NCBI GenBank assembly: GCA_027492205.1
Contig: JAOZFN010000012.1
Location: forward strand, 85,340-114,054
Origin: Thermoproteota archaeon
GTDB taxonomy: Archaea > Korarchaeota > Korarchaeia > Korarchaeales > Korarchaeaceae
Length of the DNA: 28,715 nucleotides
Direction of reading: 5' to 3'
The notes under the pieces were generated by a model. That model saw nothing but the letters and a program-made list of their open reading frames with translations, made no database searches and was not told the DNA's origin. Both the position numbers and the translations under genes were made by a program. Shown in pieces: positions 5,953 through 24,172 of the stretch. Every line of letters begins with the position of its first letter. Position 1 is the first letter of the stretch.

Positions 5953-6971
5953 AGCACGCTCGCCAAGGCCCCCTCAGGAGTGTCCGCAATGCTCACGAAG
6001 TCGAACTCCCCGAGATCAGAGATATCCTCCAGGGCGTCGTAGACCGTGAGGCTCACCTCCTCCTCGAACTTCTCCTTGAGCACCCTCAGTCGCCTGGCCG
6101 TCGCGAGGGCGGATCCCCAGTATATCGGAGAGGTGACGCTGAACGGGTGTTCGGTCTCCGCCACCACGACGCCCACGACATCACCCACGGGGAAGAACCT
6201 GCTGAGCTTGGCGCCAAACTGCCTGCCGCTCACCAGCCTAAAGAGGGCCCTCGCCGCGACGGACCTCCTCTTTTCGATCTCCTCGTCCTTGAGGATCTGC
6301 TCTCCAGTCACGGCGCTGATTCCGATTGAGGATAGGTCCAAGTTAAGGATGAATCCATAGAGGGCGGTGCCGGTCTCCACGTAGTATATCATCTGCTCAG
6401 AGGCGGCCTCCCTCTGCGACCTGTCCCTCACCTCCCTGAGCTGGGCGTGCCTCGCGTGGAGCTGCGGCTCCGTGACGCTGTATAGGGCGGCCCGCTTCAC
6501 GGGGAGCGCGTAGCTCACCTGGAACCTCGAGGTTCGCTTTACCGGAATCTTGCCAGCATACAGGAAGCCCCCGATGTCCTCGACGAGGCAGGACTTGAGT
6601 ATAGCCTCCTCCACCTTCACGGGGTCGTTTAGGAGGTCCTCTGGCTTCGATCCAGAGAAGACGGCCGCAAGCTTCTTCTTGACGTACTCGTCGCTCATGG
6701 ACTTGAAGAACTCTCCCCTGGCGCACTCCTCACAGACGGGGGCGCTCCCTCCATAGACCGCCTTGGCCTCTTCCACAAGGGCCTCCTGATAGGCGTGGGC
6801 CAGGCTCTCCCCGCTCAGCGCCGGGACGTAGATCACCTTGAACTCTTGATCCCTCGGGGAGTAGAACAGATAGGGTACCCTCCTGTGTTTAGAGTAGTTT
6901 CCCGTGGTCTCCACCGCGTTAAGGGCCTCTACATTCGCCTCAAACCTAATGCCAACGGACAAGAAGGTCAT
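5949..6971 (-). CDS. cas7: Cas7/Csa2 backbone subunit
   Basis: NVEALNAVETTGNYSKHRR, VPALSGESLAHAYQ, EDIGGFLY, VKRTSRFQVSYALP and GAKLSRFFP motifs. Confidence 0.96.
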   Translation of the reverse strand: MTFLSVGIRFEANVEALNAVETTGNYSKHRRVPYLFYSPRDQEFKVIYVPALSGESLAHAYQEALVEEAKAVYGGSAPVCEECARGEFFKSMSDEYVKKKLAAVFSGSKPEDLLNDPVKVEEAILKSCLVEDIGGFLYAGKIPVKRTSRFQVSYALPVKRAALYSVTEPQLHARHAQLREVRDRSQREAASEQMIYYVETGTALYGFILNLDLSSIGISAVTGEQILKDEEIEKRRSVAARALFRLVSGRQFGAKLSRFFPVGDVVGVVVAETEHPFSVTSPIYWGSALATARRLRVLKEKFEEEVSLTVYDALEDISDLGEFDFVSIADTPEGALASVL

Positions 6972-6980
6972 ACTCTCACC

Positions 6981-7310
6981 CTACCCATAGGAGAGCGCTA
7001 GGACGGCCAGCCTCCTGGCTACTGAGATGTCCTCCCTTATGGCCTCTAGAACGGCCTTGACGCACTCCTCTGACGGTATCTTGGGGAGAATCTTGGACTT
7101 TCCGTCGATCTTCACCGCGCTGAGCCCACTTGCGTCCTTGAACGACGCGTCGTACAGGGACCTGATGTGCCTCAGGGCATCCTTTACGGCGATCTCAACG
7201 GGATCATACGTAAGAGCATTTGAAATTCGGTCAACGTAACTGTAGTTCCTGATTTCTATGAAAAACCTCAGGAGGCCGGCCAACTCTGACATGCAATCGG
7301 CGAGTTCCAT
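6981..7310 (-). CDS. csa5: Csa5 (Cas11) small subunit
   Basis: 109 aa helical protein with YSYVDRISNAL and ARRLAVLALS; first gene before cas7. Confidence 0.88.
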   Translation of the reverse strand: MELADCMSELAGLLRFFIEIRNYSYVDRISNALTYDPVEIAVKDALRHIRSLYDASFKDASGLSAVKIDGKSKILPKIPSEECVKAVLEAIREDISVARRLAVLALSYG

Positions 7311-7627: not shown

Positions 7628-8320
7628 TTAGTGGCCTCTGCGTGAGTTTATGGCGATTCTCCCGAGCAAAGAAAGATCCCTTGAGCCATCCACGATTCCC
7701 CTCTCCCTGAGGGCGGATATGTGCCTGTAGACGGTGGACGCGTTCACCCCGAGCCGGACCGCGATCTCCCTTGGCCCAAGGCCCTGAGCCAACATCTTTA
7801 GTATCTTCAGCTTCTCCTCTCCGATCTCCGGCTCCAGCGGCGCCAAGTCAACATCCGTCGGCTGACCCGTGAAGGGGTCCACTGCCACCACCCTCCCCCC
7901 TGCCAAGCAGACCGCGTAAACCATGGCTAGGCTGGCAAAGGATCTCCACTGGGAGGGCAAGGCCGCCACCTCGAGCCCCTCGTCCTGCAGCGACTTGATC
8001 CTTCCGTAGAAGAACTCCGCTGCCTCCTCAAATCCCCGGGCCTTCAGCCTCGTCTTAGCGACGACCATCCCCGGGGAGAGCCTTGAGACTACTCTGGCTA
8101 GGCTGTCGGCTGACTCCCTTATCAGGGAGTCCCAGGGCGGGAGGGCGGGAGGCAGGAAGAGCTCAACCCTCTCCACGAAGGACAGATCGAGCTGAATTAG
8201 AGAGGAAACAAGCTGGTACCTCAGGGGCGGCACCGTAGCCAGGACGACAAGCCTCGTTCGCCCGGGAGGTTCGGCAGGGAGTACCAATCGCCCGCCCCTC
8301 GAACGGGATTTACTGCTCAC
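7628..8320 (-). CDS. Csa3-like CARF + HTH regulator (divergent CARF)
   Basis: Rossmann-like N-terminus (RLVVLATVP, RVELFLP, EVAALPSQWRSFASLAMVYA) and clear HTH GPREIAVRLGVNASTVYRHISALRERGIV; GTGA-coupled to cmr6. Confidence 0.75.
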   Translation of the reverse strand: MSSKSRSRGGRLVLPAEPPGRTRLVVLATVPPLRYQLVSSLIQLDLSFVERVELFLPPALPPWDSLIRESADSLARVVSRLSPGMVVAKTRLKARGFEEAAEFFYGRIKSLQDEGLEVAALPSQWRSFASLAMVYAVCLAGGRVVAVDPFTGQPTDVDLAPLEPEIGEEKLKILKMLAQGLGPREIAVRLGVNASTVYRHISALRERGIVDGSRDLSLLGRIAINSRRGH

Positions 8321-9222
8321 CCGACTCTGCGGAAGATGCCGAATCCACTGGATTTCTTAGCGCCCATCCCGCGCTTAGTTAGGGTCTCATCTAATAGGAA
8401 GACGACCTCTTCGAAACTCTCCTCGGGGACAGCCAGGATGAACGTGAATGTGGTGCCCTCCCCTATTACCGGGAAGTGTATCGGGTTTGGAGACTCCATC
8501 TCGGAGGGATACGTCCTTCCAGTTTCGTCCGAGTAGTATCTCCTGTAGTGGGGAGTCATCACCTCGGGACGGATCGGCGAACAACCTCGCCATGATGTAA
8601 CGAACCCTCCAAATGCTACAAGCCTCCCCCTGTATTTCGCGGTGCCAAATAGGTCTACGAGGATTTTCACGGCGTTAGTGATCTCCTCCCCCCTATCGGC
8701 AAACTTAGATGCCACTTCTGCCGGGGCCACGCCCAGTTCTCCGCGCCTGATGGCCTCAACCTCATCCAAGCTAACTCCCCCTTCGAGCAGCCGGTAGATC
8801 AGCGAGGCGCGCATGGCCCCCTTCAAGGACGAGCCCGGAATCCACGGGATGCCGTACGGGTTCAAGTAAGCGAGCCCAAGCTCCCAAGCGGTGGCACCCA
8901 GCCCCACGTAAAGCCTAGTTTCAAGCAAATACCTTCTCTCTATGACCCTCGTGGCAGGCAGCGCTAGACTGGCCCCCCTGATGAGCTGGATCGCCCTATC
9001 TGAGTAAGATTTGGGGTACTTCAGCGATGTCAAAAGGTTCCAGTGCTTAGATTTGTGAACCTTCTCGTTCTTACTCAGAGACTCGATCTCTCCCACCTGT
9101 AGGGGCCAAACATGCGAGACCAGGTGTAGATTCGGGTTGGATAGGCCCATCATCAGCGCGGCAACGTTCTGCAATATCTCCCTAACCTTGGCCGCGTTCT
9201 CTTCGCCCATTCTCATCACCAC
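8317..9222 (-). CDS. cmr6: Cmr6 RAMP
   Basis: RLYVGLG, YGIPWIPGSSLKGAMR, MTPHY, PNPIHF and GMGAKKSSGFG motifs. Confidence 0.95.
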   Translation of the reverse strand: MVMRMGEENAAKVREILQNVAALMMGLSNPNLHLVSHVWPLQVGEIESLSKNEKVHKSKHWNLLTSLKYPKSYSDRAIQLIRGASLALPATRVIERRYLLETRLYVGLGATAWELGLAYLNPYGIPWIPGSSLKGAMRASLIYRLLEGGVSLDEVEAIRRGELGVAPAEVASKFADRGEEITNAVKILVDLFGTAKYRGRLVAFGGFVTSWRGCSPIRPEVMTPHYRRYYSDETGRTYPSEMESPNPIHFPVIGEGTTFTFILAVPEESFEEVVFLLDETLTKRGMGAKKSSGFGIFRRVG

Positions 9223-10262
9223 ACATCGAATCCTCGGTAGGACAGGGATTCTAAAACGGGGTGGAAATCCGACGCGAGGAGAACGCGCTCAGAGGGGCTG
9301 ATACTCTCGATGAGATCGCGTGGATAGTCTCCGCTTAAGAATAGAATACCTCTCACGAAGCTCGGTCGACCGGCCAGCCCAAGGTGGAGCGGCGAAGCCC
9401 TCCTGGCTCTGGCCCACCCCGAAGCCTTGCCCCTCCACTGGATTGGCATCCCTAGGAGCGCCCGGTGTACCTTACTCCCGCGAACCCCAGATCCCAAGTC
9501 CCTCTCTGCCTGCCTTAGGGCCGATTCTGCCGACTTGGCCAACAACCTCCAGGGTTCTCGGCCCTGCGTGGGGGTTCCAGTCTGGAAGGTCAAGAAGACA
9601 GAGTGGGAGGGACTCTGCGCCGATGGCAAAACGACGGATCCTGACTTCCAGTCTGCCCTCGACACCCCGAGGGACTTGAGGAGTTCGCTCGCTGAGTCTG
9701 CCCATTCTTCCGGCGATGCAGATCCCGTTGCTTTTTTGGCAAGGGCCAAGAATTCTGACCCCCTCCCGTCGCACACGTAATCGTCAATCCTGAAGCTCCC
9801 GTAGCATCTTGCGGACCTGAAACCAAACCCTCCGAAGGTGACGGCCAGCGATATGGCTTTCGCGACTTCCTCAGAACCCTTCTTCCAGAGATCCGGCAGC
9901 CTGGGGTGCACCGTAAGCTCGAATTTCAAGGGGAAGTGAAATATCCTCCTGTACTTCCTGAGCATCCAGAGGAATGGATCTCTGCTGCCGAGCTCGATCT
10001 CACCCTTCTCGACCGCTCGGCTCTTAATGAAGACCGAAGAGGCCCTCGTAGCTCTCCCGCCACCGCCGAATAGGTTTCGTTCTTCCTCCTTCACCTTCCT
10101 CAGATCCACGTTGAGAACTGACAGCAAATACCAGCGATACCACCTCCTTAGGACGCCGCGAACAGTCAGGGTTCTGACCGCGAGGTCGTCTCCCTGCCTA
10201 CGTGAGTCCCCCATAGACGCCGGGGAAAGCGCCGTGAGGGAAACCCTGAGTTCCCCGCTCAT
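9216..10262 (-). CDS. cmr1: Cmr1 RAMP
   Basis: LSPASMG, VRGVLRRWYR, ERNLFG, GGFGFRSARCYGSF and RRASPL motifs. Confidence 0.92.
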   Translation of the reverse strand: MSGELRVSLTALSPASMGDSRRQGDDLAVRTLTVRGVLRRWYRWYLLSVLNVDLRKVKEEERNLFGGGGRATRASSVFIKSRAVEKGEIELGSRDPFLWMLRKYRRIFHFPLKFELTVHPRLPDLWKKGSEEVAKAISLAVTFGGFGFRSARCYGSFRIDDYVCDGRGSEFLALAKKATGSASPEEWADSASELLKSLGVSRADWKSGSVVLPSAQSPSHSVFLTFQTGTPTQGREPWRLLAKSAESALRQAERDLGSGVRGSKVHRALLGMPIQWRGKASGWARARRASPLHLGLAGRPSFVRGILFLSGDYPRDLIESISPSERVLLASDFHPVLESLSYRGFDVW

Positions 10263-10684
10263 GGCCCTCCACCTTTAAGGGTGGCCTCAGCAAGGAGCTT
10301 CAGGGGCTCGGCCAGCCTAAGGAGTTCGTCGTGGGCGATCATGAGCCCGGTTGGAGATAAACCGAGGAGGGCCTCCAGCGCACCATCGACTGTTACCTCC
10401 TGACCTAGCACGCCAACTTTCTTGAGCCACTCGATCAGTAGCGTCAGCATGATCCTGTTAGCCTCTGCTCTATCCCTCCCCTCACCGGCGGAGCCGCCCA
10501 CCCGACTTTCACCGATCGAGTTCTTCGTGACGAAGGCTATTGTCATGAGCACGCCGCTATTCACCAGCATTGCAGGGAGCTTCTGGGCCAGATTCTTGAA
10601 CTCCGATTGGAGATTATTGGATCTTTCTTTGACGTTCTTGATGTATTCAAGCGCAAAGCTCATTCGCTCTCTCTCGCCAATCAC
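10259..10684 (-). CDS. cmr5: Cmr5 small subunit
   Basis: FKNLAQKLPAMLVNSGVLMTIAF...LKLLAEA; lies between cmr4 and cmr1. Confidence 0.93.
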   Translation of the reverse strand: MIGERERMSFALEYIKNVKERSNNLQSEFKNLAQKLPAMLVNSGVLMTIAFVTKNSIGESRVGGSAGEGRDRAEANRIMLTLLIEWLKKVGVLGQEVTVDGALEALLGLSPTGLMIAHDELLRLAEPLKLLAEATLKGGGP

Positions 10685-11610
10685 CCTTCAGACCCCTCCC
10701 TCCTGCCTATTACCTTGAACTTGAGTAGCTCGACGAACCCCAGCCCGGTCGTCATGTCGCCGCCCATGTGCGCGGGCCCGGGCAGCTTCTGAAGCAGGCG
10801 GTCCAGCACCTGGTGATCGCCGAAGACGGAGAAGTAGAATATCGTCTCGGGTGGGATGTCCTCTTGGAACCACAGCGTGCTAACCGTCCCCGTCTCCTCG
10901 TTGATGGCTATGTGGGGGGTTATGCTGAGTCCCCTGCTCAGGAGGTGCCTGAAAGTGTCATCTGACACGATGGCCAACCTCTGCTTGATCTCGCCATACG
11001 GCGAGATGCCTTCAAAGGCCCTGTCCAGCGCTCTGGGCAGGTTAGGATCGGCCTGGAGGGCCACATCCTCTAGTATTACGTACTTCGTGCCCCTGAGATC
11101 CACTGTGATCGCGCTGTCTTCTGCGATCAGCGCCTTGCCGTCGTGGCCCCAAGCTACGCGTGGATACGTGGAGTTTGCCTGACCGCCTGTGAGTCGCTGA
11201 GCGAACTCGATGTCCCTGAAGAACCTGTTCACTATGAACGGACACGTCACCCAGGCAAAGACTCCCTCTAGGCTCTTGACCGCCAGGAATAGCAGCCTAG
11301 CATCGGTGAACAGGGCCATACCTGCCGACTCGCCGCCCTTCCCCATCTCGGGGCCGAATATCCTCCTAACCTCCACCTGTGAGAGGCCCTTCTTCGGAGC
11401 CCAGCTCCTCAGGGCCCCCTTAACGCTGGACCCGTATATCACGGGGAGGCCCGTGTGGGCCTCTCTCTGGACTGGAAGGTCCGCCAAACCAGAGACACTG
11501 GCCCCACTCCCCGGGTGGAGCGGAGTCAGCGCCCTGACCAGAAAAATCGCGGCGGACCTCGTCACGGTCGAGACCCTATTTCCAGCATCCGGCTGGACCT
11601 CAGAGTTCAT
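10681..11610 (-). CDS. cmr4: Cmr4 RAMP (target RNA cleavage)
   Basis: TPLHPGSG, ADLPVQRE (catalytic Asp present), GSSVKGALR, DARLLF and GGDMTTGLG motifs. Confidence 0.96.
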   Translation of the reverse strand: MNSEVQPDAGNRVSTVTRSAAIFLVRALTPLHPGSGASVSGLADLPVQREAHTGLPVIYGSSVKGALRSWAPKKGLSQVEVRRIFGPEMGKGGESAGMALFTDARLLFLAVKSLEGVFAWVTCPFIVNRFFRDIEFAQRLTGGQANSTYPRVAWGHDGKALIAEDSAITVDLRGTKYVILEDVALQADPNLPRALDRAFEGISPYGEIKQRLAIVSDDTFRHLLSRGLSITPHIAINEETGTVSTLWFQEDIPPETIFYFSVFGDHQVLDRLLQKLPGPAHMGGDMTTGLGFVELLKFKVIGRREGSEG

Positions 11611-12752
11611 GACACCACCTCCGAGTCGAAGCTCGGACTCGCACGAACCACCATGGGAGAGCCGAACCCCCTCTCCCAGAACAGAGACCTCCTCCAGAAG
11701 GCGAGGGTCAGCTCAAGCCGACTAGCCGGCTCGCCGAGCCTCACGTAATACACCGATCCAGGTGGGGCGGCCGAGTACATGGGGCGCGCCCTTCTAGCCT
11801 TGAGGCTCCAGCCGCTCAGCTTCCATGGCCTTCCGACTATCCAGAGGATGTGACCGTTCACCCGAACGTACTCCGGCCTGCCTGGTAGTCCTGACAGATC
11901 CGGGTGAGAGACCCCTACTCGCCCGTCCCTGTAGATGGCGGGGCTGAGTAGGACCAGCTTCACCACGTCTCCCGCCTCGAGTTCCTCATCCTGAAGCCAC
12001 GGAAGGGGCTCGGCCATGGTGTGAGTCGTGACCCGGGCTGGTCGGCCCTCTCCACCGAGGCGGACTATTCCATCCAGTTCTCTGAGTTCCTCTCCGCTCT
12101 TCCTCGAGATCAGGGCGCAGAACGAGATATCGGCCACCCCGCCGTTGACCATCACTTTAGGAGGCCTGAGGTGAACGCTCGTGTAGAGGAGGCCTTGCTC
12201 CGACGTTCCCGTTGTCTCGCTGATCGTGAGGCCTAGCCTCCTCTCCTCCGAGAGGGAGACGACATCCCTTACGGGATCTCCTATCTCCGGTTTCTCCTTC
12301 AGGTAAGCCCTGAGGGCCTCGAGGGAGAGCATGCCGCTCACGGGCTCGTCCTCCTTGGTCTGGACGATCGGAGGAAGCCAGCGGTGGTAGCCGCGGGCAT
12401 CCCTCTGAACTGGCTGCAGGACTCGGAGCGCCTTCCTCCCCCCAACGTCTCTCACGACGACATCCTGCGGGGGCCAGAACCAGAGCCTTCCGCTGCATCG
12501 TAGGAAGGGCCCGTAGAACGTGAAGTCGGTTGCCTCTCCACGCTCCTCCTCTGCCTCGCTCTTGCTCGCGCCGGCTGAACTCCAGTCTCCCGTGAGGGCG
12601 GCGTAGAGATATAGAGCGGCCCCCGACAGCGTCCAAGGAGTCGGAAACCGAAGCGTCGAACCCTGACCACCCCTACCCAGCCCTCTCGAGTCCCCAAAGA
12701 AAGAGGAGTCATAAGGGATCAGCTCGAGTAGAAGGGAAGGGATGCCCACCAT
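11607..12752 (-). CDS. cmr3: Cmr3
   Basis: PYDSSFFG, FPTPWTLSGA, RLGGEGR, LLSPAI, SGW, PPGSVYY and GFG motifs. Confidence 0.95.
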   Translation of the reverse strand: MVGIPSLLLELIPYDSSFFGDSRGLGRGGQGSTLRFPTPWTLSGAALYLYAALTGDWSSAGASKSEAEEERGEATDFTFYGPFLRCSGRLWFWPPQDVVVRDVGGRKALRVLQPVQRDARGYHRWLPPIVQTKEDEPVSGMLSLEALRAYLKEKPEIGDPVRDVVSLSEERRLGLTISETTGTSEQGLLYTSVHLRPPKVMVNGGVADISFCALISRKSGEELRELDGIVRLGGEGRPARVTTHTMAEPLPWLQDEELEAGDVVKLVLLSPAIYRDGRVGVSHPDLSGLPGRPEYVRVNGHILWIVGRPWKLSGWSLKARRARPMYSAAPPGSVYYVRLGEPASRLELTLAFWRRSLFWERGFGSPMVVRASPSFDSEVVS

Positions 12753-15700
12753 CAGCCGCTCACCCCCCTCAAGACCTCTGAGAGATCCATCCTGAGCGCC
12801 TTGTTGAAGTTCAGGGCCTTCCTCACGCTTATTCCCCCTTGAGTTGAGGAGAACCGCCAGTAGAGCCCTAAGAGTTCTTGAACAACTCCAGAGGCCTCGT
12901 ACTCTTTTCCAGAACTGGGATGAATGTTTCTAGCTATCGCCATGTGGATCAGTAAGCGCACTATCCCCAGGTTCTCCTGGGCTACGGCTCCGGCCGCGGA
13001 GACCGTGCGGTCGACCAGCCCGAGGATCTCCTCGATGTCTCTGACCGCGTTCTTGCTCAGCCGAACGCCTCCCACGCCGCGAGTGAGTTCCAGGATCCTC
13101 CTCTCCACCGCCTCAAGGGGTCCCCCGCGCGGCTCCGCACACGTACTTCTGGGATCAGCGACCTCGACCTCCCTGAGGCTTAGAACCGCCCGCTCCTCGG
13201 CGAGAGATCTGGATAGTTTCGTGAGGGATATCCGGCCTTTCTCCCGGAGGTCGGCTTCCTCTCCTTCCAGAACCTCTCCCTTGGCTACCTTCTCTTCCAG
13301 CCTAACTCTCTCCAGAGACTCCCACATGGGAACTAGCCTGTGAGAGATCACCAGTCCCGCGCTAAGAGTGGCTAAGCGGCCCATCCCTAGAGAAAGGCCC
13401 TCTTCAGTTGAGACCACTTCCGCAGAGAAGACGCGGTATATCCTCTCTACCACGGATAACGGAGTGTTCTCCGGATCATTTGCAGGTATGACGGCGAGCA
13501 GGTCGTCGCCCCCGGAGTAGAACACCACGCCGCCTGCCTCCTCGATAAGACGCGGGAAGACCCTTCGCGCTAGCCCAGCCAGTATCCTGCTCAGGGAGCG
13601 GTGGAGAGATGGGGTCATGAGTCGATGCGTCTCAACGACCCTGGGGCTCGCCCCGCTCTCTCTGAACCTGGCGACCACCCGGGGGTGTAGCCGGCCCCCG
13701 ATCATCAGGCCCAGCTGGGCGAACTTCCTTCCGGAGATCCAGAGGCCCATGTCGTCCCCGTCCGCCTTGATGAAGGCCACGTAGTTCGAGGGAGCCCTCG
13801 CCACGCCCCTGGACTTCATCTCGTTTGCTAGCAGGTCTAAGACGTTCAAGACTGCCTTCACGGCCTCTCTGCCATCTCTCAGAAGGTTGGTAAGTTCGTC
13901 CCCCGTAATTACATCCTCAAGCAGTTCTAGATCACGCAGGGCAGCCTCCCACTTGGCCCTATACAGGAAAGACCCGGGAATCCCAATCCTCTCCAGCCTC
14001 TCCCTGATCGCGCTCAGGAACTCGCCCTCGACCGCCTTATCTCCCTCGATCTCGGAGAGTATCTGCCAAGCGTCCGACTCGACCCCCGCGAGGCCGCTGA
14101 GTCTCAGTTCTGAGAGGCGGGGGATTCCAGCGAGCCTGTCTGAAAGCCTGACGATGGCGGCGAGGGCTTCTGAGACCTTCATCTTGATGCTCTCTCTGAG
14201 GTCCTCGGGAAGCCCCTCGAGGGAAGACCTGAAGGGCCTGGCCGCTATGTCATCCAGGGTCGGGAGGGGACCTAGCTCAGAGAGAATCACCCCCCGCCTG
14301 AGGATGCGCTCTAGCTTGTCTCTGGGGCTCGCGGCGCCTCCCCTTTGCAGAATTCTGCTCCACAGCCTGATCAGAATCTGATACCTCCTGAACGCTCTCT
14401 TAATTAGGCAAACTGCGCAGAGTGGCTCTTCAGGTGATAGGAGCCAACCGACGGGTGAACCCCTCTGCCTGAGCTGCCTCACAAGCTCTCTCCATCCCTC
14501 CTCTGCACGGCTCGCTCCAACCGCAGGCAGGACGAGGGGGTTTCTAGAGCCACAGAGCCTGCATCTCCTGGAGACCTTCAAACCTCCCTCTTCTGATGGC
14601 TCCTCATGCTCAGAGAACGGTTCCGCAAGCTTCTCGGCTCTCACCCTAATTGCAAGCACGGAGTACGCTACAGGGTAGAAGAGGGTCGGTCGGGGCACGT
14701 AGCCGTGCCGGAGATCCTCCATCAGCACGGTAGTCAGGTCATCTAGCACGGATCCTGAATCTCGCAAGCTTTCATCCCATCCAAGGGCCTTTGTGGGTAT
14801 CAGGTTCTTCAGGGTCTCCCGAACGGCCTCCCTTACCTCAGAGTCGCTGAGCCCTTGGCAGCGCTCCCTCAGTTCGCTCCAGAACTCCCTCACATCTTCT
14901 AGTGTGACGTGAGCGACCCTTACTTGAAGGGGGTACGGCAGCCCATCCCCGAGCTGGCGACGCCACTGGAAGGAAATCTCCGAACTCAGTTCACCGAAGA
15001 TCTCCTCTAGGACGATGTCGCCCAGACTCTTTAACAGAGACTGGATCGCCTCTTTGACTCTCCTCTCTAGCTCCCCTACCCTTTCTTCGGGTGCGACAAA
15101 GAGGAACGTTGCAGGGACGGCCGGCACAAGGAGGTTCTTTACCAGAGCATTGAGTCCGTCCCCTCCGCCCCAGAGGGACGTCAGCTCCTCGTCGGTGAGG
15201 ACCCCCTCCGAGTAGAGGTAGAGATCCACAAGAGGGTCCCCGCGGAGATCTGGATAAATCAGTGCGTCGGGTCCAAGCTCGCGAACAACCATCATTATTC
15301 CGGCCATGGCCAAAGAACTCACCAGATAGCTGGAGGCCCAGAGATCCCTGACCCTCCTGCTCTGCCGCAGGAACTCCTGCACGCCGCCTATGTCCACCAT
15401 CACCAGCGCGGGCCTATCGACTGTGAAGGCGGCGGTGGTCACAAGGTGATCGAATATGCTGTGATCCGGCAGCCTGGAGTCGGCCGGGACAAGATGAGTC
15501 AGAGAGAACTCAGCCGGACCTCCAGGCTTAATCCCGACTGACTCAACCCATAGGCGAGGGAGCATTCTCCAGAGGTAGAGGAACTCCCTGCGTCTATCTC
15601 CACTCAGCCTGCGGTGAACGACACGGAGCCTCTGAGACAGCGCCTCCTGCAAGTCGGCCAGGGACCTGTGGAGTAGGTTCGTTCTTAGGACGTCCCTGAG

Positions 15701-16027
15701 CTTCTGAGAACCGTGCAAGCACGGCTTCCCCAAGAGCTCAGCGGAACTCATGGGGTGAAAGAAGATCTCGGCTGGCCCTTCCTCGCGCTCCCCGCTACCC
15801 CACTGAACCTCGCCCGTCTCTTCCCTTGAGAGAACAGTCCTATCCGCTGCTGAAGCCAACCAGTCGGCCTCTCTGACCCTATCCAGTCCAGAATCCGAGA
15901 GACCCAACGAGGACCTGAGCTCTTGGGCTGCACGCTCGTGCGCCCTGATCCCGAGGACTTTGAACGGGGGGTCGTGGAGGAGGGCGCATAGCTTGACTTC
16001 CCAGTAATTGGGGGGGCTTGCGCCCAT
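12752..16027 (-). CDS. cas10: Cas10/Cmr2 with HD domain, Zn finger and intact GGDD cyclase motif
   Basis: LLHDPPFK, PADSRLPDHSIFDHL, GVQEFLRQSRRVRDLWASSYLVS, CRLCG/CAVC, KADGDDMG and YSGGDDLLA motifs. Confidence 0.97.
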   Translation of the reverse strand: MGASPPNYWEVKLCALLHDPPFKVLGIRAHERAAQELRSSLGLSDSGLDRVREADWLASAADRTVLSREETGEVQWGSGEREEGPAEIFFHPMSSAELLGKPCLHGSQKLRDVLRTNLLHRSLADLQEALSQRLRVVHRRLSGDRRREFLYLWRMLPRLWVESVGIKPGGPAEFSLTHLVPADSRLPDHSIFDHLVTTAAFTVDRPALVMVDIGGVQEFLRQSRRVRDLWASSYLVSSLAMAGIMMVVRELGPDALIYPDLRGDPLVDLYLYSEGVLTDEELTSLWGGGDGLNALVKNLLVPAVPATFLFVAPEERVGELERRVKEAIQSLLKSLGDIVLEEIFGELSSEISFQWRRQLGDGLPYPLQVRVAHVTLEDVREFWSELRERCQGLSDSEVREAVRETLKNLIPTKALGWDESLRDSGSVLDDLTTVLMEDLRHGYVPRPTLFYPVAYSVLAIRVRAEKLAEPFSEHEEPSEEGGLKVSRRCRLCGSRNPLVLPAVGASRAEEGWRELVRQLRQRGSPVGWLLSPEEPLCAVCLIKRAFRRYQILIRLWSRILQRGGAASPRDKLERILRRGVILSELGPLPTLDDIAARPFRSSLEGLPEDLRESIKMKVSEALAAIVRLSDRLAGIPRLSELRLSGLAGVESDAWQILSEIEGDKAVEGEFLSAIRERLERIGIPGSFLYRAKWEAALRDLELLEDVITGDELTNLLRDGREAVKAVLNVLDLLANEMKSRGVARAPSNYVAFIKADGDDMGLWISGRKFAQLGLMIGGRLHPRVVARFRESGASPRVVETHRLMTPSLHRSLSRILAGLARRVFPRLIEEAGGVVFYSGGDDLLAVIPANDPENTPLSVVERIYRVFSAEVVSTEEGLSLGMGRLATLSAGLVISHRLVPMWESLERVRLEEKVAKGEVLEGEEADLREKGRISLTKLSRSLAEERAVLSLREVEVADPRSTCAEPRGGPLEAVERRILELTRGVGGVRLSKNAVRDIEEILGLVDRTVSAAGAVAQENLGIVRLLIHMAIARNIHPSSGKEYEASGVVQELLGLYWRFSSTQGGISVRKALNFNKALRMDLSEVLRGVSG

Positions 16028-16152: not shown

Positions 16153-17382
16153 ATGGTCGAACCTTCTAACCGAGAGAATGGGCCTAGAGAAGAAGAAAGG
16201 GCCTGCCTCTACCTGGAGAAGTGGTTTCGGGTGTTTTACAGGGATCTCACGGCCGCGCAGGGGGCGGCCTTGGAGTTGGACGCCCTAGCGGTGGTCGACC
16301 CGGCCTCTCTGCTCTGCTCTCCTGATCTGGAGTCAATCCGCCCGATGATAGTCCAAGTGGAGGAGAAGCGTAAGATAGGGAGTGAGGGCGTGCTAGACGC
16401 GTACAGGAGCCTAGGCATGTACCCTGGCGGGCGCCCCTTCATCCTCCTCGGGGATGGGGTAACGATGCAGGACGCGAAGAACTCTCTCGGTGGACTGGGC
16501 AGGTTGCAGCTCCCTCCGATTGTCGTCGGACCCCGATTGATTCAGGTCCTCCGTGTCCAGCGGCTGGACGAGAAGTATGGTGAGGTAGCAAATCTCCTGA
16601 AGATACTTCTCCTAACCTCGGCCTGCGGACTGTCTTTGGATGTTGTAGAGAAGATGTTGGCCTGGGCCAACCTCAAGACCATGCCGAGATTGAGGTTTCT
16701 GCTGAGCCTCCTCCGCCCAACAACGCTTGAAGAGTTCAGGAGGGAGTTACCCCAGATCCTTGATGAAATGAAATCGGAGATTCAAGAACTCGATGTAGGC
16801 AGTACAGAGACCAGATCAGAGTGGGGAGGAAACTCCCCTCCCACGCTCTTCGCCCTCGTGGGTATCGCCCGCTCTCCCAGGCTAATGAAAAGATTCTGGG
16901 CGCCTGCCGCCGCCGAGTTTGTCCTTCGCCGAAGATACAAGCGGGTCTTTGTGATCCACTCCGGAGATGAGAGGAGTGAAGAGACCGCGAAGAGGCTGGG
17001 GGAACTCGTAGAAGATCGGCTCAAACGCTCGGGCGCGGAGGCCCAGTTACTGGTCTATGGGCCAAGCAGAGAGTCTCGGGAATCCATTTTGAGATCCTAC
17101 CTGAGCGCGATAAGTCAAGTTGTAAGAGATTTTGGGGAGATAACGCTCTACCCGATAGATCTGGCATTCATTGGAGAGCTGGAAAAGACTGTCGTGCTGA
17201 AGATCGTTGAGAGCCTCTCGTCACGTGGGCATCTCCAACTAGAGGGCGGGGGTGGAAGCCTTGGGGTGTCAAATCTCTTCTGCGGGATTCACGGGATCAC
17301 ATGCATAGAAGCGGGGGGAGGTGAGGAGTTCCTTGAGCACGGGTTCATATTCGAGCGAGTTTGGCCTCTTGGCCAGGCTTAG
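16153..17382 (+). CDS. Hypothetical protein; putative N-terminal PD-(D/E)xK (Mrr-like) nuclease + C-terminal CARF-like domain
   Basis: 409-aa ORF with GGTGA RBS. Nuclease-like EERACLYL...ELDALAV...IVQVEEK...RPFILL. CARF-like TLFALVG...KRVFVIHSGDERSEETAKRL...LQLEGGGG. The ORF is solid; the domain calls are inferred. Confidence 0.6.
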   Translation: MVEPSNRENGPREEERACLYLEKWFRVFYRDLTAAQGAALELDALAVVDPASLLCSPDLESIRPMIVQVEEKRKIGSEGVLDAYRSLGMYPGGRPFILLGDGVTMQDAKNSLGGLGRLQLPPIVVGPRLIQVLRVQRLDEKYGEVANLLKILLLTSACGLSLDVVEKMLAWANLKTMPRLRFLLSLLRPTTLEEFRRELPQILDEMKSEIQELDVGSTETRSEWGGNSPPTLFALVGIARSPRLMKRFWAPAAAEFVLRRRYKRVFVIHSGDERSEETAKRLGELVEDRLKRSGAEAQLLVYGPSRESRESILRSYLSAISQVVRDFGEITLYPIDLAFIGELEKTVVLKIVESLSSRGHLQLEGGGGSLGVSNLFCGIHGITCIEAGGGEEFLEHGFIFERVWPLGQA

Positions 17383-18715
17383 GGACCCAGTCGTAGACCG
17401 GGCAGATGCCACGCGCTGGAGACTTCCAGACCTCTTCTTTTGGTTCGCCTCCGGTATTACGGCGGCCGCGTTCAGTGGTAGGGACGACATCAGCGACGTC
17501 GGAGCATGGGTGAGGGCCTTCGCGGGAGGTGGCGCTGGATCAGTGAACTCACGCTTGGTCGTGTGGCGAAAGAGGAGGGGAGTCGTCGAGTGGAAAAGAA
17601 TCGCATTCTTGAGGTGGCTTGAGCTGACCCCGTTCTCCATGTTCTCTCCCGACTCTCTCCTCTTCCCAGTCAGTGGGGAGTTGGAAGGGGGGGTGGAACT
17701 CCACGCGCTACTGAAACAGGGCTTCATTGTGGACGAGTCGGTGCTCCCCGATAGAGAACTCCAGGTATCCCCGGTAGGTCTCCTCTCTACAGCGGTACCC
17801 GCAGTGAGGTCGGGGATGAGTCTCATAATAGGAGCCCTGCAGGCTGCCCTAGCCAGAATTCTGTGGATCAGGACCGGACTGGGGCAGTTTGACGTAAAGG
17901 TGGCTGTTGGAGATGCCATAGCCTCCCTGCTTGGATACTTCAGGATCAACCTGAGGTCTAGCCCACCGTCAGCGATTGGCGACTTCACTACGAGCGTCAT
18001 CTCCCCGATAGATCGAGGACTGGCTCAGGCCGGTCTGCGAGGGCTCGTCGCAATTCTGGACAAGGGGTCCGTCTGGTCCCAGCCAAGTCAGGGTGAGCTG
18101 ACGTGGCTCGAGGGCTTCCTCAGGTGGACTTCCGACGTGCCTGAAGGAGGATTCAACGTCAGAATACCAAGACAGCTGCTGGGAAGGATCATTAAGGTTA
18201 GCAGAGAGAGAATGTCAAGGGACGGATGGATAGAGAGTTTCATCTCAAAGGCGGCAGATGAAGTGGCCGAACTCGCGGGAGGACGGGGAGCCGAAACCGG
18301 GATTGTTGTCGAGTTCTCCGAGCAGATGAACCTCATTGACCTGTACGTTTTAGATCGGGCCTTGGGAGAAAGTTTAAGAGAGGTCATTGCAATATTCACC
18401 CCCCTCTCCCTGCTTACGAGCTTCCCCCACCTCTATCAGTCGGCGAACTACCGGGAGGTCACCGGACGGGAACTCAGGCTAGGAGTGGGTCCACTTGGAG
18501 TCACGTGCATACTGTCCTCGGGAACCGACAGATGGATACACGAGAAGGCCGTGGGATGGGCCCTTCGTTCGCTCAAGGAAAGGGGGTACTCCAATATCGT
18601 CTACTGGCCGAACGGATCGACGCTTCAGGTCGCGGTGGGTCGCCTAGTTGCGGAGAGGGAGAGCGCAACAGTCCTCCCTCCGGCAGCGGCCCTAGGGAGG
18701 TTTGGAGAGAAATGA
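17321..18715 (+). CDS. Hypothetical protein; possible internal wHTH + C-terminal CARF-like domain
   Basis: 464-aa ORF (start could be TTG 17369). Wing-like ALLKQGFIV...LQVSPVG. Rossmann-like GIVVEFS, REVIAIFTPLS and NIVYWPNGSTLQVAVGRLVAERE. Confidence 0.55.
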   Translation: MRSSLSTGSYSSEFGLLARLRDPVVDRADATRWRLPDLFFWFASGITAAAFSGRDDISDVGAWVRAFAGGGAGSVNSRLVVWRKRRGVVEWKRIAFLRWLELTPFSMFSPDSLLFPVSGELEGGVELHALLKQGFIVDESVLPDRELQVSPVGLLSTAVPAVRSGMSLIIGALQAALARILWIRTGLGQFDVKVAVGDAIASLLGYFRINLRSSPPSAIGDFTTSVISPIDRGLAQAGLRGLVAILDKGSVWSQPSQGELTWLEGFLRWTSDVPEGGFNVRIPRQLLGRIIKVSRERMSRDGWIESFISKAADEVAELAGGRGAETGIVVEFSEQMNLIDLYVLDRALGESLREVIAIFTPLSLLTSFPHLYQSANYREVTGRELRLGVGPLGVTCILSSGTDRWIHEKAVGWALRSLKERGYSNIVYWPNGSTLQVAVGRLVAERESATVLPPAAALGRFGEK

Positions 18716-18903
18716 GGGCGCGTAAGAAGAGAGGGCGGGGGCGTGGCGCAAGGGCCTTGGGAGCCTACCGTGCAACCACTCCCGAGCGCCCCCGTCCGTC
18801 GACAATGAAGAGTTACTCAGATAAAAGAGTGCGCTGCCTCCCCGGGCCAGCGAGTTGGTGTCTAATGCGGGCCGCACCGAAGGGCTACTCGAGTCGGTGC
18901 GTA

Positions 18904-20301
18904 ATGTCTCTCGGGAGAGTTGTATTCACTGGAAGGTCTGTTGCGCCAGATGGTGCACGGCCCGCCCCGAGGATCATCAGGAGATCGCTTTCCAAGCTCG
19001 TTGAGGTTCTAGGCTTCAACGGAGATGCCTATGTGTACGTCAGCAGAAGAAAAGTCAGAGAGGCCCCCTGGCGAGAGATGGGTCTGGCTAAGCCCCCGAC
19101 CCTAGAGGTTAGGTTCTACCCCTGGGGATTCACTTCGTTCTGGGTGAGGACGGAGGTTCACAGGCGAGTGGGGCTCGAGGACCTAGCCGACCTTTGGGGA
19201 TCTGTCGCCGTCAAGATGCGGGGCCTTATAAGATCCGAGGGGACGAGAATCGGTGCTAAGAACGGGTCTAAGCTGTTTTCGCTGGTGAATGTGGTTCGCG
19301 GTTATGTGTCTGAGAGGGGGTGGGACAGGGCCGTGGTGTTCAAGCTAACGGCTCCCCTCGTAAGGAAGGAGGTCTCGCGCAGCCACGCAGAGACGCGACT
19401 GACCGAACTCAAGTTACGAAGTCCTGGAGACGTGTTCGCGCTCAGCGAGTTCGGCGTCTTTGCGTACTTTCCAAGTTTGACCGGCAGATCTGGTCACCGA
19501 GCCCGTAAAAAGCTCCGAAGGAGTGTGGAGTATGCGGCGGACCTCGCACTCGCCCAGAGGCTAATAGGAGATAACCCAAACATCTTGGCCGAGAGAAAGG
19601 TTGCCGATAACCTCATCTTCTTAGCCCCCGGCGCCATCACGGCCAGAAGGGAAGGTATATGTCTGGACGGTTTCTTTTCTTTCATCTACAAGTCGATCTC
19701 AGGGAAACTAAACTCCGCTGAGGCCTTTTTGAGGGCGATCTCACACATTAGGCTGATTTTTCCCCCGAGGATACTTGATCTCGGGAGGCTCTACTTGGGG
19801 ATGGCGAATCTAGGCCTCGACTCTCCCGTTGCTAGCGATGTCGCCTTTGCGGCGCTCGGAAGGGAGGAGTTCGACGTCGTCCTCCTGCTAGCCATCAAGG
19901 AGATAGTTGACGAGGAGGTGGCGGAACCCTCTCTAAAGGCCAAAGCACTTTGCGAGGCCGCGCGGCAGTTTGGGCTGTCTCAACCACCCAGAATATCTGA
20001 GCGATCACTTGCAAAGCGCCTTGAGTCCCGAGAGGATATCAAGGGCAGCCTGTCGATACCAGAGATCTGCCTAGTGCTCACTCGCATCGACGAGAGCGTG
20101 CTGTATGCCAGCGGAGGAGGACTCATGAACGGACTTGTGGCAAAGGGGTACGTCAGGAGGTGTGAAGTTGGAAGAGCTGGTAAGGGGGTCCCAAAGGTCG
20201 AAGTTTACATTTTGACATGGTTGCCCCAGCTAAGCGATCTCAAGAGCGTAATAAGAGAGCCAGTGAGGTCAATAGCCTGGAGAGTTCTCCGCCGAGACTG
20301 A
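18904..20301 (+). CDS. Hypothetical protein with C-terminal winged HTH; N-terminus resembles the CorA-like soluble domain
   Basis: Long ORF, open from 18505. ATG 18904 is preferred; ATG 18712 overlapping the upstream TGA is an alternative. wHTH-like LSIPEICLVL...MNGLVAKGYVRR...VEVYILT. Confidence 0.55.
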   Translation: MSLGRVVFTGRSVAPDGARPAPRIIRRSLSKLVEVLGFNGDAYVYVSRRKVREAPWREMGLAKPPTLEVRFYPWGFTSFWVRTEVHRRVGLEDLADLWGSVAVKMRGLIRSEGTRIGAKNGSKLFSLVNVVRGYVSERGWDRAVVFKLTAPLVRKEVSRSHAETRLTELKLRSPGDVFALSEFGVFAYFPSLTGRSGHRARKKLRRSVEYAADLALAQRLIGDNPNILAERKVADNLIFLAPGAITARREGICLDGFFSFIYKSISGKLNSAEAFLRAISHIRLIFPPRILDLGRLYLGMANLGLDSPVASDVAFAALGREEFDVVLLLAIKEIVDEEVAEPSLKAKALCEAARQFGLSQPPRISERSLAKRLESREDIKGSLSIPEICLVLTRIDESVLYASGGGLMNGLVAKGYVRRCEVGRAGKGVPKVEVYILTWLPQLSDLKSVIREPVRSIAWRVLRRD

Positions 20302-21817
20302 ACTCCTGTCGCTCTTCGTCCCATAGCTCCCAGGGAATCTCCCAGTGAGACTCTAACCCGGTCAGGATGGGCTGGAACGTGGTCAACCTCTCGCCTAATA
20401 GGGCAGACAGCATTCTGGCCATTCTGAGACCCGACTCAGGCGAGACGAACACAGGACCCCAGGCGCCCCTCAATGATCCCTCTAGGTACGCTAGCACGGG
20501 GGAGGAGATTGCAGCGAGTGCATTCAGCATTAGACCAAACTCACTCTCACCCACCTCGACGTGGATGAGAGTCGGTTCTCCGAAAAACCGCCCGGTAGGG
20601 CTGTAGGACCTGTATATGACCCCCCCATCCCTGAACTTTCTTATCTTGTAGCGTACTCCCCTGAATCCCTCCTCGACGAGAGAGCTCTCAGATATGCTGC
20701 CAGTTCTGTGGATCCTCGCAAGGAGCCTCATGTCCTCCCTGCTCAGTCTCTTCCGAGCGACGGTCTCTTTTGGAGAAATGGGTCTCAACCTCGCGGGGCC
20801 ACGCAGTGCGGCGGACAGCCGGCGTCCCAGGTCGGGAACCTCTATCCTGTCCAACCGGAAGAAATATCCCTGTCTCTTCACCACGCCCACGCGGATGTCG
20901 AGGCTCTCCAAGCCCTCGATCAGCGGAAATACTAGCCTCCTCGGCACAAGAACTATCGCGTAGCTGGGTGAGCGGCTAGAGACGGTCCAGAGTATGGAGT
21001 AAGTGAGCTTAGAGCTTGCAAAGTCCTCTACCAGCCTCCTAGACGGAAGCTCACAGACAACTGTCTCCAAGCCGAGAGCCGGGAAGTTGACGTGCCAAGG
21101 TCCGGAGACCATCTCCCCGTACCTCAGCTTCTTTATCGTGCGTGACACCGTAGGCTGAGATATCCCCGTCTCCCTTGACACGTCGGAGACTAAGAGATCC
21201 GGATTTCTGGCAAGGATCCTGAGAACCGCCATTCCCCTCCTGCTCAGATGCGGCTTTGTGTCGGATAAGCTGGCCAGCAGTATCCTGAAGTAGAGGGAGA
21301 AACTTACCTTATCAGTCAACTCCTCCGCGGCGGCCATCAGGTGAACGGCTTGCTTCACCGTGATTAGCCGCTGGCGGGCTGGAAGTATGCCCAACAGAGA
21401 GGGGGCATCGTATAGCGGAAGGCTGGAAACCTTCACTACGTGCGTGTTCTCCCTCCACCACCCCAGACTTCCCAGGGAGTACGCCCAGGCCAGGTCCATC
21501 GTCTCTGGGACCGCTCGTAAGAACTTGGGTGGAATGAAGAGCCTGAAAGCCTCCCGCTTGACGGCCTGCCTGATTCTAGATCCTAACCTTCCACTGAAGA
21601 TGAGCCTTTGCCCATCCTCTCTAACGCCGGATCTGTAGCCTGAAGAAATCGGCTCGTCCTCAACAGTAATCTCAGGAGGTATGTCCCAGAACGGACTCAT
21701 TAGAAGCTTCCTTTGTATCTCACGCACTTCACGCTCGAGGGCCTCTCTATTCGCGAGCATCCGCGCCCTAGCGGAGTGAGACTCGCTCTGAATTAATTGC
21801 GGGGGTCTCGCGACCAC
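20240..21817 (-). CDS. Tandem Lrp/AsnC-like winged-HTH regulator with an extra N-terminal domain
   Basis: AGGAGG RBS. HTH1: LSRRGMAVLRILARNP...SDVSRETGISQPTVSRTIKKL...VNFPALGL. HTH2: LSREDMRLLARI...VRYKIRKFRDGGVI. Confidence 0.75.
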   Translation of the reverse strand: MVARPPQLIQSESHSARARMLANREALEREVREIQRKLLMSPFWDIPPEITVEDEPISSGYRSGVREDGQRLIFSGRLGSRIRQAVKREAFRLFIPPKFLRAVPETMDLAWAYSLGSLGWWRENTHVVKVSSLPLYDAPSLLGILPARQRLITVKQAVHLMAAAEELTDKVSFSLYFRILLASLSDTKPHLSRRGMAVLRILARNPDLLVSDVSRETGISQPTVSRTIKKLRYGEMVSGPWHVNFPALGLETVVCELPSRRLVEDFASSKLTYSILWTVSSRSPSYAIVLVPRRLVFPLIEGLESLDIRVGVVKRQGYFFRLDRIEVPDLGRRLSAALRGPARLRPISPKETVARKRLSREDMRLLARIHRTGSISESSLVEEGFRGVRYKIRKFRDGGVIYRSYSPTGRFFGEPTLIHVEVGESEFGLMLNALAAISSPVLAYLEGSLRGAWGPVFVSPESGLRMARMLSALLGERLTTFQPILTGLESHWEIPWELWDEERQEFSLGGELSRLLTSLALLLRS

Positions 21818-22146: not shown

Positions 22147-22259
22147 CGCTGCGCTGATCTTTATAAGGCGGCGCCGGCCTCCCCGATCAGCGCGCCCCTC
22201 CCGGGATCGGGCGGGTGGAGGAGGCCCTCTGGAGGATATACCCATTAGGGGGTTGGGGG
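22147..22259 (+). promoter_or_regulatory. Leader of array 2 with TATA box (TTTATAA, 22160-22166)
   Basis: Matches the reverse complement of 831-926 except for a 14-nt insertion (22185-22198) and the last few bases. Confidence 0.9.
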
Positions 22260-22755
22260 GAAGCAATCAGAGCTACGCCTTTTTTGCCCAGAACGTGCCA
22301 AGTCTATGGCGGGTTCCGGCTCCGGAAGAACGAAGCAATCAGAGCTACGCCTTTTTTGCCCAGAACGTGGGTTCCCCTTGTCGTCCAACTCCTCTTCAAT
22401 CTTCACGAAGCAATCAGAGCTACGCCTTTTTTGCCCAGAACGTTTGGAATGGGAAGCCACGCCTCGACCCCTCCCTTGCCCCTGACGAAGGAAGCAATCA
22501 GAGCTACGCCTTTTTTGCCCAGAACGTGCGAAGCGTGGATAGCAAAGAAATCGAGTCGGATCTTGAAGCAATCAGAGCTACGCCTTTTTTGCCCAGAACG
22601 TGGAGGGGGCGGAGGCGGAGGGGTGGACCCGTCGCTCGTCGCCGGGAAGCAATCAGAGCTACGCCTTTTTTGCCCAGAACGTTACCAACAGATAGATTGA
22701 GAAGCCGGTCGAGTCTAAGAAGCAATCAGAGCTACGCCTTTTTTGCCCAGAACGT
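22260..22755 (+). CRISPR. CRISPR array 2: 7 identical atypical 37-nt repeats, 6 spacers (35, 38, 47, 37, 44, 36 nt)
   Basis: GAAGCAATCAGAGCTACGCCTTTTTTGCCCAGAACGT at 22260, 22332, 22407, 22491, 22565, 22646 and 22719; unique spacers; leader homologous to leader 1. Confidence 0.97.
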
Positions 22756-22913
22756 AGCAGGAAGAGCGGGCGACCAGAGTGGAGGACTTCTCGCGGGTGG
22801 TCAGCCCTCTCCGGAGGGGAGAGCCACGAGATCTCTTTCAGGCGGCTGCCAAGGATCCCCAGTGGAGCGGCCAGCCGGGGGGAGAAGATCGACCGGCGGA
22901 GGCCGGGCGTGCT

Positions 22914-23250
22914 CACTCCAGCCTGACCGCCCGCGTCGGGACCGCGAGCTCTGGGGAGTAGAAGCCGTAGCAGCCCACCACTTCCCGCCCCGCCGGCCGC
23001 ATCTCCGAGAAGAACTCTCTGAAGCTCGAGACGAGCTTGAACCCCCCGACCAGCGCGTCCCGCTCCCCCTCGAGGACGGCCAGCTCACGCCCAGCTCCAG
23101 CCTCCCGGCCTCCACCCCGCCGACCGCGGCCCCCTCCAAGACCCTGAGCCGCGGGGCGCCGGTCTCAGGCTCCACGGGGTCCTCTCGGCCCGACGACGTG
23201 GGGACCAAGTTGGATGGGAATGCCAGGGGCCTCGAGGAGTAGTCCCTCAG
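22914..23250 (-). pseudogene. Possible frameshifted gene remnant
   Basis: Protein-like text in two frames (LRDYSSRPLAFP...RLRVLEG; LAVLEGERDALVGGFKLVSSFREFFSEM...AVRLE*) with no convincing start. Confidence 0.25.
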
Positions 23251-23353
23251 GCCGGTCAGGGCGTGGGTGAGGAGGGTGCAACGGAGGCTCGACCTACAGA
23301 CGGTCGCCGGTCTCCACTCCGCCCTTCCAACCTCCTCGGGCTTCCGAGGCAGG

Positions 23354-24172
23354 TCAGTCGACCCTCATGTACCTCACCCCAGAGAAGAACCTGCCCGGCG
23401 CGAGGGCGACGAGCCCGGCGTCCAGACCCGCCAGGACCGCTGCTGAGATCAAGAGGTGCTCCAAGCCGATCGCGAAGCCCCCGAGGACCTGGCCGAACAC
23501 CGCCGCCAGGATGGGCGCCACCAGTATTGCGGACGCCTGCTGGGCCTCCCTTGCGCTCCTGGCCCTGGAGGAGGCCAGCACTGTGAGGGATATTGCGAGG
23601 AAGGCGTAGAGCGGGGACACGAGGGCGACGACCACGCACCACTCGGGGCCGGACGGGAACCACCACCCGCCGAACATGTCAGCCGACATCAGGTTGGTCG
23701 CCAGGGCCATCAGCGCGAAGGCGCCCCAGGAGGCCCCCACGCCCGGCGCCAGGGACGCGAGGGCCTTGGCCAGGAAGAGCTCCCTCTCGGTGAGCGGGGC
23801 GGCCAGGAGGACCTCTATGGTCCCCCTCTCCCTCTCGCCGGCGAAGCTGTCCGCCGCCATCACGGTCGACACCGCCAGGGGGATCACCAGGAAGAGCGGG
23901 GGGACGATCAGCGAGAAGGCCGCGTAGACAGACCTAGCCACCTCGTCCAGCCCCTCGGGAGCCGCGGGAAGGGGCAGGTCCCCGAGCCTGACGGGTATCG
24001 ATATGGGGACGACGGCGCCGCCCGAGATCCTGGCCCCGAACACGATTATGGCCGGCAGGACGACGCCGAAGTAGACCGTCAGCGCCAGGGCGGTCCCGAC
24101 CAGCCAACCGCTCCTAGAGAACTCCCTCCAGTCCTTCACCAGGACGCACAGAACCCTCGACCACCTGATCAC
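23354..24172 (-). CDS. ABC-2 type transporter permease
   Basis: Multiple TM segments; AADSFAGERERGTIEVLLAAP...LFLAK. Confidence 0.93.
   Translation of the reverse strand: MIRWSRVLCVLVKDWREFSRSGWLVGTALALTVYFGVVLPAIIVFGARISGGAVVPISIPVRLGDLPLPAAPEGLDEVARSVYAAFSLIVPPLFLVIPLAVSTVMAADSFAGERERGTIEVLLAAPLTERELFLAKALASLAPGVGASWGAFALMALATNLMSADMFGGWWFPSGPEWCVVVALVSPLYAFLAISLTVLASSRARSAREAQQASAILVAPILAAVFGQVLGGFAIGLEHLLISAAVLAGLDAGLVALAPGRFFSGVRYMRVD

Follow-up and report, generated by a model that had tools for sequence, protein, structure and literature searches.

The stretch of DNA analysed here, called the window in the following, is the final 28.7 kb of contig C1 in the genome under study (G000), a draft of 1.94 Mb from an uncultured archaeon that is distributed over 17 contigs, has about 63% G+C and is 96% complete. 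Starting 23 kb upstream of the window, the order along the contig is array A, cas6, family-less ORFs together with an ATPase, cas1/cas2/cas4 and array B (array 1 in what follows), then csa3, a type I-A module, a csa3-like gene, a type III-B module and three family-less ORFs, and finally a 525-aa winged-helix protein, array 2 and ABC-transporter genes. Array A, which lies upstream of the window on the minus strand, has 78 normal repeats; array 1 has at least 18, with two N runs inside (C1:84954-85069 and 85235-85339, just upstream of window position 1). We refer repeatedly to G003, an independently assembled genome of the same genus. The features of the window are the following.

1 to 830, minus strand: array 1 (array B), with normal repeats ending in ATTGAAAG; it extends upstream of the window
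831 to 939, minus strand: leader of array 1
1004 to 7310, minus strand: csa3 and the type I-A interference genes cas3'', cas3', cas8a2, cas5a, cas7/csa2 and csa5
7628 to 16027, minus strand: csa3-like regulator and the type III-B genes cmr6, cmr1, cmr5, cmr4, cmr3 and cas10/cmr2
16153 to 20301, plus strand: three ORFs without a family match; the part from about 18311 is conserved in G003
20240 to 21817, minus strand: 525-aa winged-helix-domain protein with weak CasR/Csa3-like matches
22148 to 22259, plus strand: leader of array 2, homologous to the array 1 leader, with a TATA-like TTTATAA at 22160-22166
22181 to 22194, plus strand: 14-nt segment that the leader of array 2 shares with that of array A and that array 1 has lost from its leader
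22260 to 22755, plus strand: array 2, seven identical 37-nt hybrid repeats and six spacers (35-47 nt)
22260 to 22272, plus strand: retained head of the normal repeat, GAAGCAATCAGAG (13 nt); position 14, a C, can be assigned to either part
22273 to 22296, plus strand: the replaced 24 nt in the first copy, without hairpin and without ATTGAAAG tag
22280 to 22285, plus strand: T6 tract in the first of the seven repeats, on the strand that is transcribed; probably an archaeal terminator signal
22756 to 22773, plus strand: 18 nt that separate the last hybrid repeat from the flank in common with genome G001
22774 to 23364, plus strand: flank homologous to G001 (86-94% identity), absent from G003

The genes cas1, cas2 and cas4 are located at C1:82.5-84.5 kb, and cas1 is present in a single copy in G000. 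For the Cas6 family there are three weak matches in the genome, every one under the curated cut-off. The three ORFs between cas10 and array 2 (409, 464 and 598 aa) found no match in Pfam, NCBIfam or PADLOC; a homologue of the third, 67% identical, occupies the syntenic position in G003, and more distant ones (470-480 aa, about 30% identity) occur in G001, G003 and G004. A fourth array lies on another contig (C10:17882-20590) and contains 33 copies of a repeat of a second family, GTTGCAATCAGGCCCCGACTGAGGGGGCGATTAAAAC, which ends in ATTAAAAC and whose last copy keeps its first 21 nt only. The leader of this array has a GCGCTGATCTTTATAAGG block in common with the main family and its repeat contains GCAATCAG; the leader TATA block and the 5' GCAATCAG are common even to this second family, despite the single cas1. 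One 42-nt spacer is found identical and in the same orientation in both families, as spacer 46 of array A and at C10:18071-18112. At its distal end (C1:71393-71503), array A carries two degenerate repeats of another type, GAAGCAGATT...GGTTGAAAG, which is in active use in five arrays of G001 and suggests an earlier switch of repeat type within one array. A lone degenerate repeat beginning GAAGCAATCAGAGTTCTCTGAGG occurs without an array in G004 (C62:1456, locus L041), and is perhaps the remnant of a lost array.

Array 2 has the layout of a genuine CRISPR array, with at least three identical direct repeats and unique spacers of similar length (35, 38, 47, 37, 44 and 36 nt). As the preliminary description of this locus had reported, its repeats are 37-nt hybrids, identical in all copies (7/7), in which GAAGCAATCAGAGC, the first 14 nt of the normal repeat, is followed by TACGCCTTTTTTGCCCAGAACGT, 23 nt that are unrelated to the normal repeat (GAAGCAATCAGAGCCCTCCAAGGGCAGAGATTGAAAG, as in array 1). 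The count of the 14-mer over the whole genome agrees with this, its 103 occurrences being divided among 94 intact normal repeats, two cut by N runs and the seven hybrids. The conserved 5' end of the repeat family, GAAGCAATCAG, is present in the hybrid; GAAGCAATCAGAG is the only piece that hybrid and normal repeat have in common, and inside it lies the GCAATCAG that is common also to the repeat family of contig C10. The same description had pointed to near-identical leaders of arrays 1 and 2 and to one adaptation module for both arrays, and both points stand, cas1 being single and array 2 having acquired spacers. Of the 112 columns in the alignment of the two leaders from GCTGCGCTGATC (22148) to the repeat, 94 match, 1 is a mismatch and 17 are gaps, the latter made up of a single 14-nt indel and of 3 nt where leader and repeat meet. 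Array A has this 14-nt piece in its leader too, which places the deletion in the leader of array 1. Upstream of this block the leaders of array 1 and array 2 are unrelated. Array 2 possesses, in sum, a genuine leader with a putative promoter-like element upstream, and cas1 and cas2 are in the genome.

Consecutive hybrid copies share 37 nt in four of the six pairs and 38 nt in the other two, which indicates that the duplicated unit is 37 bp. Six such duplications have been made from a template without normal sequence in its last 23-24 nt, so that the leader and 13 nt of repeat suffice for uptake; the same duplications imply that the far cut is measured and not read.

The tail of the hybrid is peculiar to this array. 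Allowing up to 3 mismatches, the 23-nt tail occurs in the 1.94-Mb genome only at the seven places of array 2, and the hybrid repeat was not found beyond G000 among 38 genomes of the order. Scans for two adjacent hybrids, which may exclude G000 itself, returned two stretches from 185,579 species genomes, namely one contig of G003 and one unrelated tandem repeat, and four stretches from 241 million metagenome records, all of them unrelated tandem repeats. Neither the array 2 tail nor the hybrid tail of G003 has an exact match in viral contigs. We also considered the tail as the repeat of another array of G000 and rejected this, for no such array exists and the three other periodic hits are coding tandem repeats.

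In evolutionary terms, this raises two questions: where did the replaced part of the repeat come from, and how has it been copied so faithfully? The sister genome holds the most informative evidence. Of 61 related genomes, only three have arrays with this repeat head, namely G000, G003 and G024, the last with one mismatch. The cas6-adjacent array of G003 (C8:51883-55195; locus L028 2384-5696) is composed of 43 units, 34 with normal repeats and nine leader-proximal ones with hybrids. Eight of these hybrids consist of GAAGCAATCAGAG followed by ATGTCGTACCACTTGTTGCCCC, and one older copy has a different tail; as in array 2, they break at +13 and share only GAAGCAATCAGAG with the normal repeat, and their tails are unrelated to the array 2 tail. 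The oldest hybrids lie 72 and 80 nt from the repeat that follows, distances that correspond to normal units; an integration in shifted register was predicted from this, and the corresponding search for copies of the leader end was positive: an exact copy of 25 nt stands directly before the first normal repeat (L028 3044-3068) and another of 23 nt directly before the oldest hybrid (L028 2974-2996). With an 18-nt probe, such internal copies were found only in this array, one of the six tested. The first event is seen as a 34-nt insert within a 38-bp direct duplication that comprises the last 25 nt of the leader and nt 1-13 of the repeat, the second as a 44-nt insert within a 36-bp direct duplication of the last 23 nt of the leader and nt 1-13 of the repeat, which may reach repeat +16. 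A target-site duplication of repeat length around an insert of spacer length is the signature of Cas1-Cas2, and integration was therefore displaced by about 24 bp upstream. The later hybrid copies of G003 share 34-37 nt and their 3' ends are ragged, which reflects copying by distance. Hybrids with the +13 head have arisen independently in G003, in an array that apart from its growing end is ordinary; the recurrence is based on two lineages that carry the repeat and hybrids, with three events, two of them within one array.

In the first event of G003, both cuts lie immediately 5' of a CCCTC pentamer, 38 bp apart, which offers only a hint as to why the shifted register is used. The large array of the same genome has 204 repeats, of which 203 are normal. 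Its repeat 172 of 204 (C8 about 31368, locus L039) is 21 nt long, with GAAGCAATCAGAG followed by ATTGAAAG, and is without the 16 nt between the two hairpin-flanking CAGAG pentamers; it looks like slippage.

The explanation that we favour, at a probability of roughly 70%, is that array 2 derives from a self-propagating error of spacer integration which was then copied faithfully, and does not represent a second class of guide RNAs. An aberrant event would have joined the leader to the first 13 (or 14) bp of the repeat, followed by foreign, probably spacer, DNA. The single Cas1-Cas2(-Cas4) module would recognize the leader together with those first 13 bp, the second cut would be placed by distance (37 bp) and not by sequence, and each later insertion would copy the 37-bp hybrid, six insertions leading to seven identical copies. 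A single error of integration propagates itself because the first repeat is the template of all later ones. In G003 the founding step is preserved as a full-site integration in a register displaced upstream by about 24 bp, the cuts lying at leader -23/-25 and at repeat +13 to +16; afterwards the true junction faced 13 nt of repeat and then spacer DNA, and the next insertions duplicated 34-37 bp to give the eight copies. By analogy, we infer that the founding event in G000 was of the G003 type and that the replaced 24 nt of its hybrid are probably former spacer DNA.

The same 37-bp copying would follow if, at the outset, a deletion or illegitimate recombination had eliminated an older array and brought trailer DNA next to the leader and repeat nt 1-13, an origin that we judge unlikely. 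It would agree with what lies downstream of array 2 in the window, where neither a copy of the leader end (18-nt probe) nor a normal repeat was found, and where the duplication of about 37 bp flanking a spacer-length insert, which is seen twice in G003, is missing. With the founding duplication absent, the break point shared with G003 is the one feature that assigns array 2 to shifted integration. An older array at this locus is plausible from the comparison with G001, in which some 750 nt separate the same flank from an upstream array of another, related repeat type; homology to this genome starts 18 nt past the last hybrid repeat. However, a random deletion would have broken the repeat at +13/+14, as in the integrase-made events of G003, only by coincidence. 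Moreover, the tail (24 nt) and the 18 nt downstream add up to 42 nt, a normal spacer length, and this segment (about 41-42 nt) shows no similarity over 41 nt to the 120 nt that precede the shared flank in G001 (score 6, below the shuffle mean of 7.5; p = 0.97), so that we rejected the tail as local DNA of the G001-like flank. On account of the shared break point, we favour shifted integration with later loss of the older array over deletion.

One further candidate in the flank was discarded. A degenerate normal repeat or leader-end copy with an apparent repeat-like hairpin, at about 22797-22830 and 42 nt downstream of the last hybrid repeat, scored 12 for similarity to leader and repeat, which is not above chance (p = 0.095 against shuffles; p = 0.27 against random genomic windows), and the same sequence is in the flank of G001. 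The flank shared with G001 begins with CCAGAG (22773-22779), and CAGAG pentamers bracket the 42-43 nt after the retained 13 nt, a pairing that may be due to chance or microhomology.

The preliminary description had gone further than the structure of the array, proposing that its guides could be a functional second class of crRNA, directed by their own 8-nt tag, CAGAACGU, to a different processor or effector that might be linked to the neighbouring genes; one of the extra Cas6 paralogues would be a further candidate. The seven identical copies of an array that is active in adaptation, the three Cas6-like genes of the genome and the three family-less ORFs nearby are all in keeping with this proposal, which nevertheless appears improbable to us. 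Searches for the second repeat in related genomes and collections gave no other occurrence, and array 2 thus lacks the mark of a distinct CRISPR-Cas system, a repeat conserved elsewhere and linked to dedicated cas genes; a tail conserved nowhere in the material searched argues against an orthogonal tag, as do the hybrids of G003, which have other tails and, with their last 2-3 nt varying between copies, no fixed tag. Nor does the suggested link with the adjacent genes hold, for the stretch between about 18311 and 22033 is also conserved in G003, a genome without an array at the site, where only 119 nt separate the winged-helix gene from the ABC permease in place of the leader and array of G000.

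The hybrid also differs from the repeats from which guides are made. Working repeats of G000, G003, G024 and G001, and in modified form that of contig C10, have a conserved 5' end, a GC-rich central stem and an (A)TTGAAAG 3' end, the stems of G001 and G024 having been judged by eye and folding having covered the repeats of G000 and G003 only. The ATTGAAAG tag or a near-tag is kept in the repeats of G000, G003, G001 and G024, and the 8-nt tag is required for loading into I-A and III-B complexes. The array 2 hybrid has CAGAACGT at its 3' end and so lacks the 8-nt ATTGAAAG end, the future 5' tag of the crRNA. It is also devoid of a stable central stem-loop: the folding energy is -12 kcal/mol for the normal repeats of G000 and G003 (z -2.8 and -2.5) and -3.7 to -4.7 kcal/mol for three hybrids (z about 0), that of array 2 having -3.7 (z 0.18). 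Furthermore, each of its repeats contains a T6 tract, seven in the 496 nt of array 2, whereas four segments of normal arrays with a total of 10,143 nt contain no T6 and a single T5. One study (PMC2253867) reports that an archaeal RNA polymerase terminates efficiently at runs of five to six T. Judging from these sequence features, transcripts of array 2 would be poorly made, given the T6 in every repeat, and poorly processed or loaded, given the lack of hairpin and of ATTGAAAG; if so, the array would be immunologically a dead end or contribute weakly at most.

Finally, an assembly artefact, in which reads of another array were joined to the array 2 leader, is hardly credible even though the draft is in 17 contigs and array 1 is interrupted by N gaps, since the junction of 14 and 23 nt recurs seven times, each time beside a different spacer, a 14-nt overlap would by our reasoning be shorter than assembler word sizes, the genome has no other tail-bearing array that could donate reads, and the same kind of structure is present in the independent assembly of G003.

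The spacers of array 2 (35-47 nt) fall inside the length range of those in arrays A and B (35-52 nt). No self-targeting by them emerged when the 98 spacers of G000 were compared with its own genome after masking of the arrays. Spacer 3 matches 38 of 47 positions in an ORF of the Phage_integrase family on contig C7 of G003, and seven of the nine mismatches fall in one codon phase; the other five of the six spacers have no match in the own genome, in 38 genomes of the order or in phage records, and the comparison of array 2 with phage records gave no match. The first 14 kb of contig C7 (G003:C7:1-14000, locus L069) contain three tyrosine-recombinase genes and may be an integrated element that G003 partly targets itself. 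This stretch is matched by spacer 3 of array 2, by spacer 62 of array A and by spacer 61 of the large array of G003 (36/43), so that array 2, matching the same stretch as array A, may sample the same kind of mobile DNA as the normal arrays. For a comparison of PAMs only these three protospacers were available, all diverged, and their flanks differ from one another.

Read as copied integration errors, array 2 and the hybrids of G003 would provide in vivo evolutionary support, from a lineage of uncultured archaea, for three points on which the evidence comes mostly from engineered systems: that the integrase needs the leader and the first 13 bp or so of the repeat, that a ruler of about 37 bp sets the second cut, and that off-register integration occurs in nature. 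An array may go on recording spacers behind repeats that have been stripped of their guide-making features. For annotation, the lesson is that a familiar leader may precede an unfamiliar repeat type without there being a new CRISPR-Cas system. More speculatively, shifted-register integration by Cas1-Cas2 could be a natural form of repeat birth, turning a spacer into repeat DNA that is then locked in at the growing end of the array, a generalization that we offer as possible rather than probable. If it is general, it would represent an undescribed failure mode that is able to silence the newest immune memories of an array, and also a source of new repeat sequences for the later evolution of Cas6 and effector specificity; the hybrid might already be tolerated by one of the three Cas6 paralogues.

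How does array 2 relate to known deviations of CRISPR repeats? In the literature searched, in which subscription journals were thinly covered, we met no natural hybrid repeats formed by shifted integration at a genuine junction, nor their self-propagation. The terminal decay of CRISPR arrays is gradual and affects the oldest repeat. Degenerate terminal repeats resemble the present case in being variants inside an otherwise uniform array, but here it is the newest repeats that are changed, all alike and with a sharp break at +13. A second term of comparison is the off-target 'neo-CRISPR' integration by Cas1-Cas2, which creates spontaneous CRISPR loci (Nivala, Shipman and Church 2018, cited in PMC6698737). 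As in those loci, non-repeat DNA has become a new 'repeat' through duplication of a fixed length between staggered cuts. Unlike them, the integration involves a genuine leader-repeat junction in shifted register, producing a hybrid repeat with the true leader kept; array 2 does not occupy a non-CRISPR locus devoid of a genuine leader, for it has such a leader and its flank lies near an array in G001.

The choice of the second site by a ruler is described for type I-E, for type II-A of Streptococcus thermophilus and for Pyrococcus furiosus (PMC5039180, PMC6895254, PMC6698737), and in vitro the P. furiosus system uses correctly spaced non-CRISPR sites. The fixed spacing of two integration sites is the same here, except that theirs comes from the laboratory and ours is a fossil record in natural genomes. 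The closest parallel is found in the type I-B system of Haloarcula hispanica (Wang et al. 2016, PMC4872114), where uptake depends on a motif situated some 8-10 bp into the repeat; duplication begins where leader and repeat meet, and its end is fixed without regard to sequence, to within about 1-3 bp. The mutant Rm16-30, altered in nt 16-30 of the repeat, still acquired spacers and duplicated 31 instead of 30 bp (PMC4872114). Array 2 is the natural counterpart of such engineered half-repeat mutants: in both, the leader and the leader-proximal half of the repeat suffice and the end is set by distance. Unlike the mutants, the hybrid of array 2 arose naturally, in an uncultured archaeon whose cas1-cas2-cas4 genes stand beside I-A and III-B modules, and hybrids of this kind have been propagated over further acquisitions, six in G000 and seven in G003.
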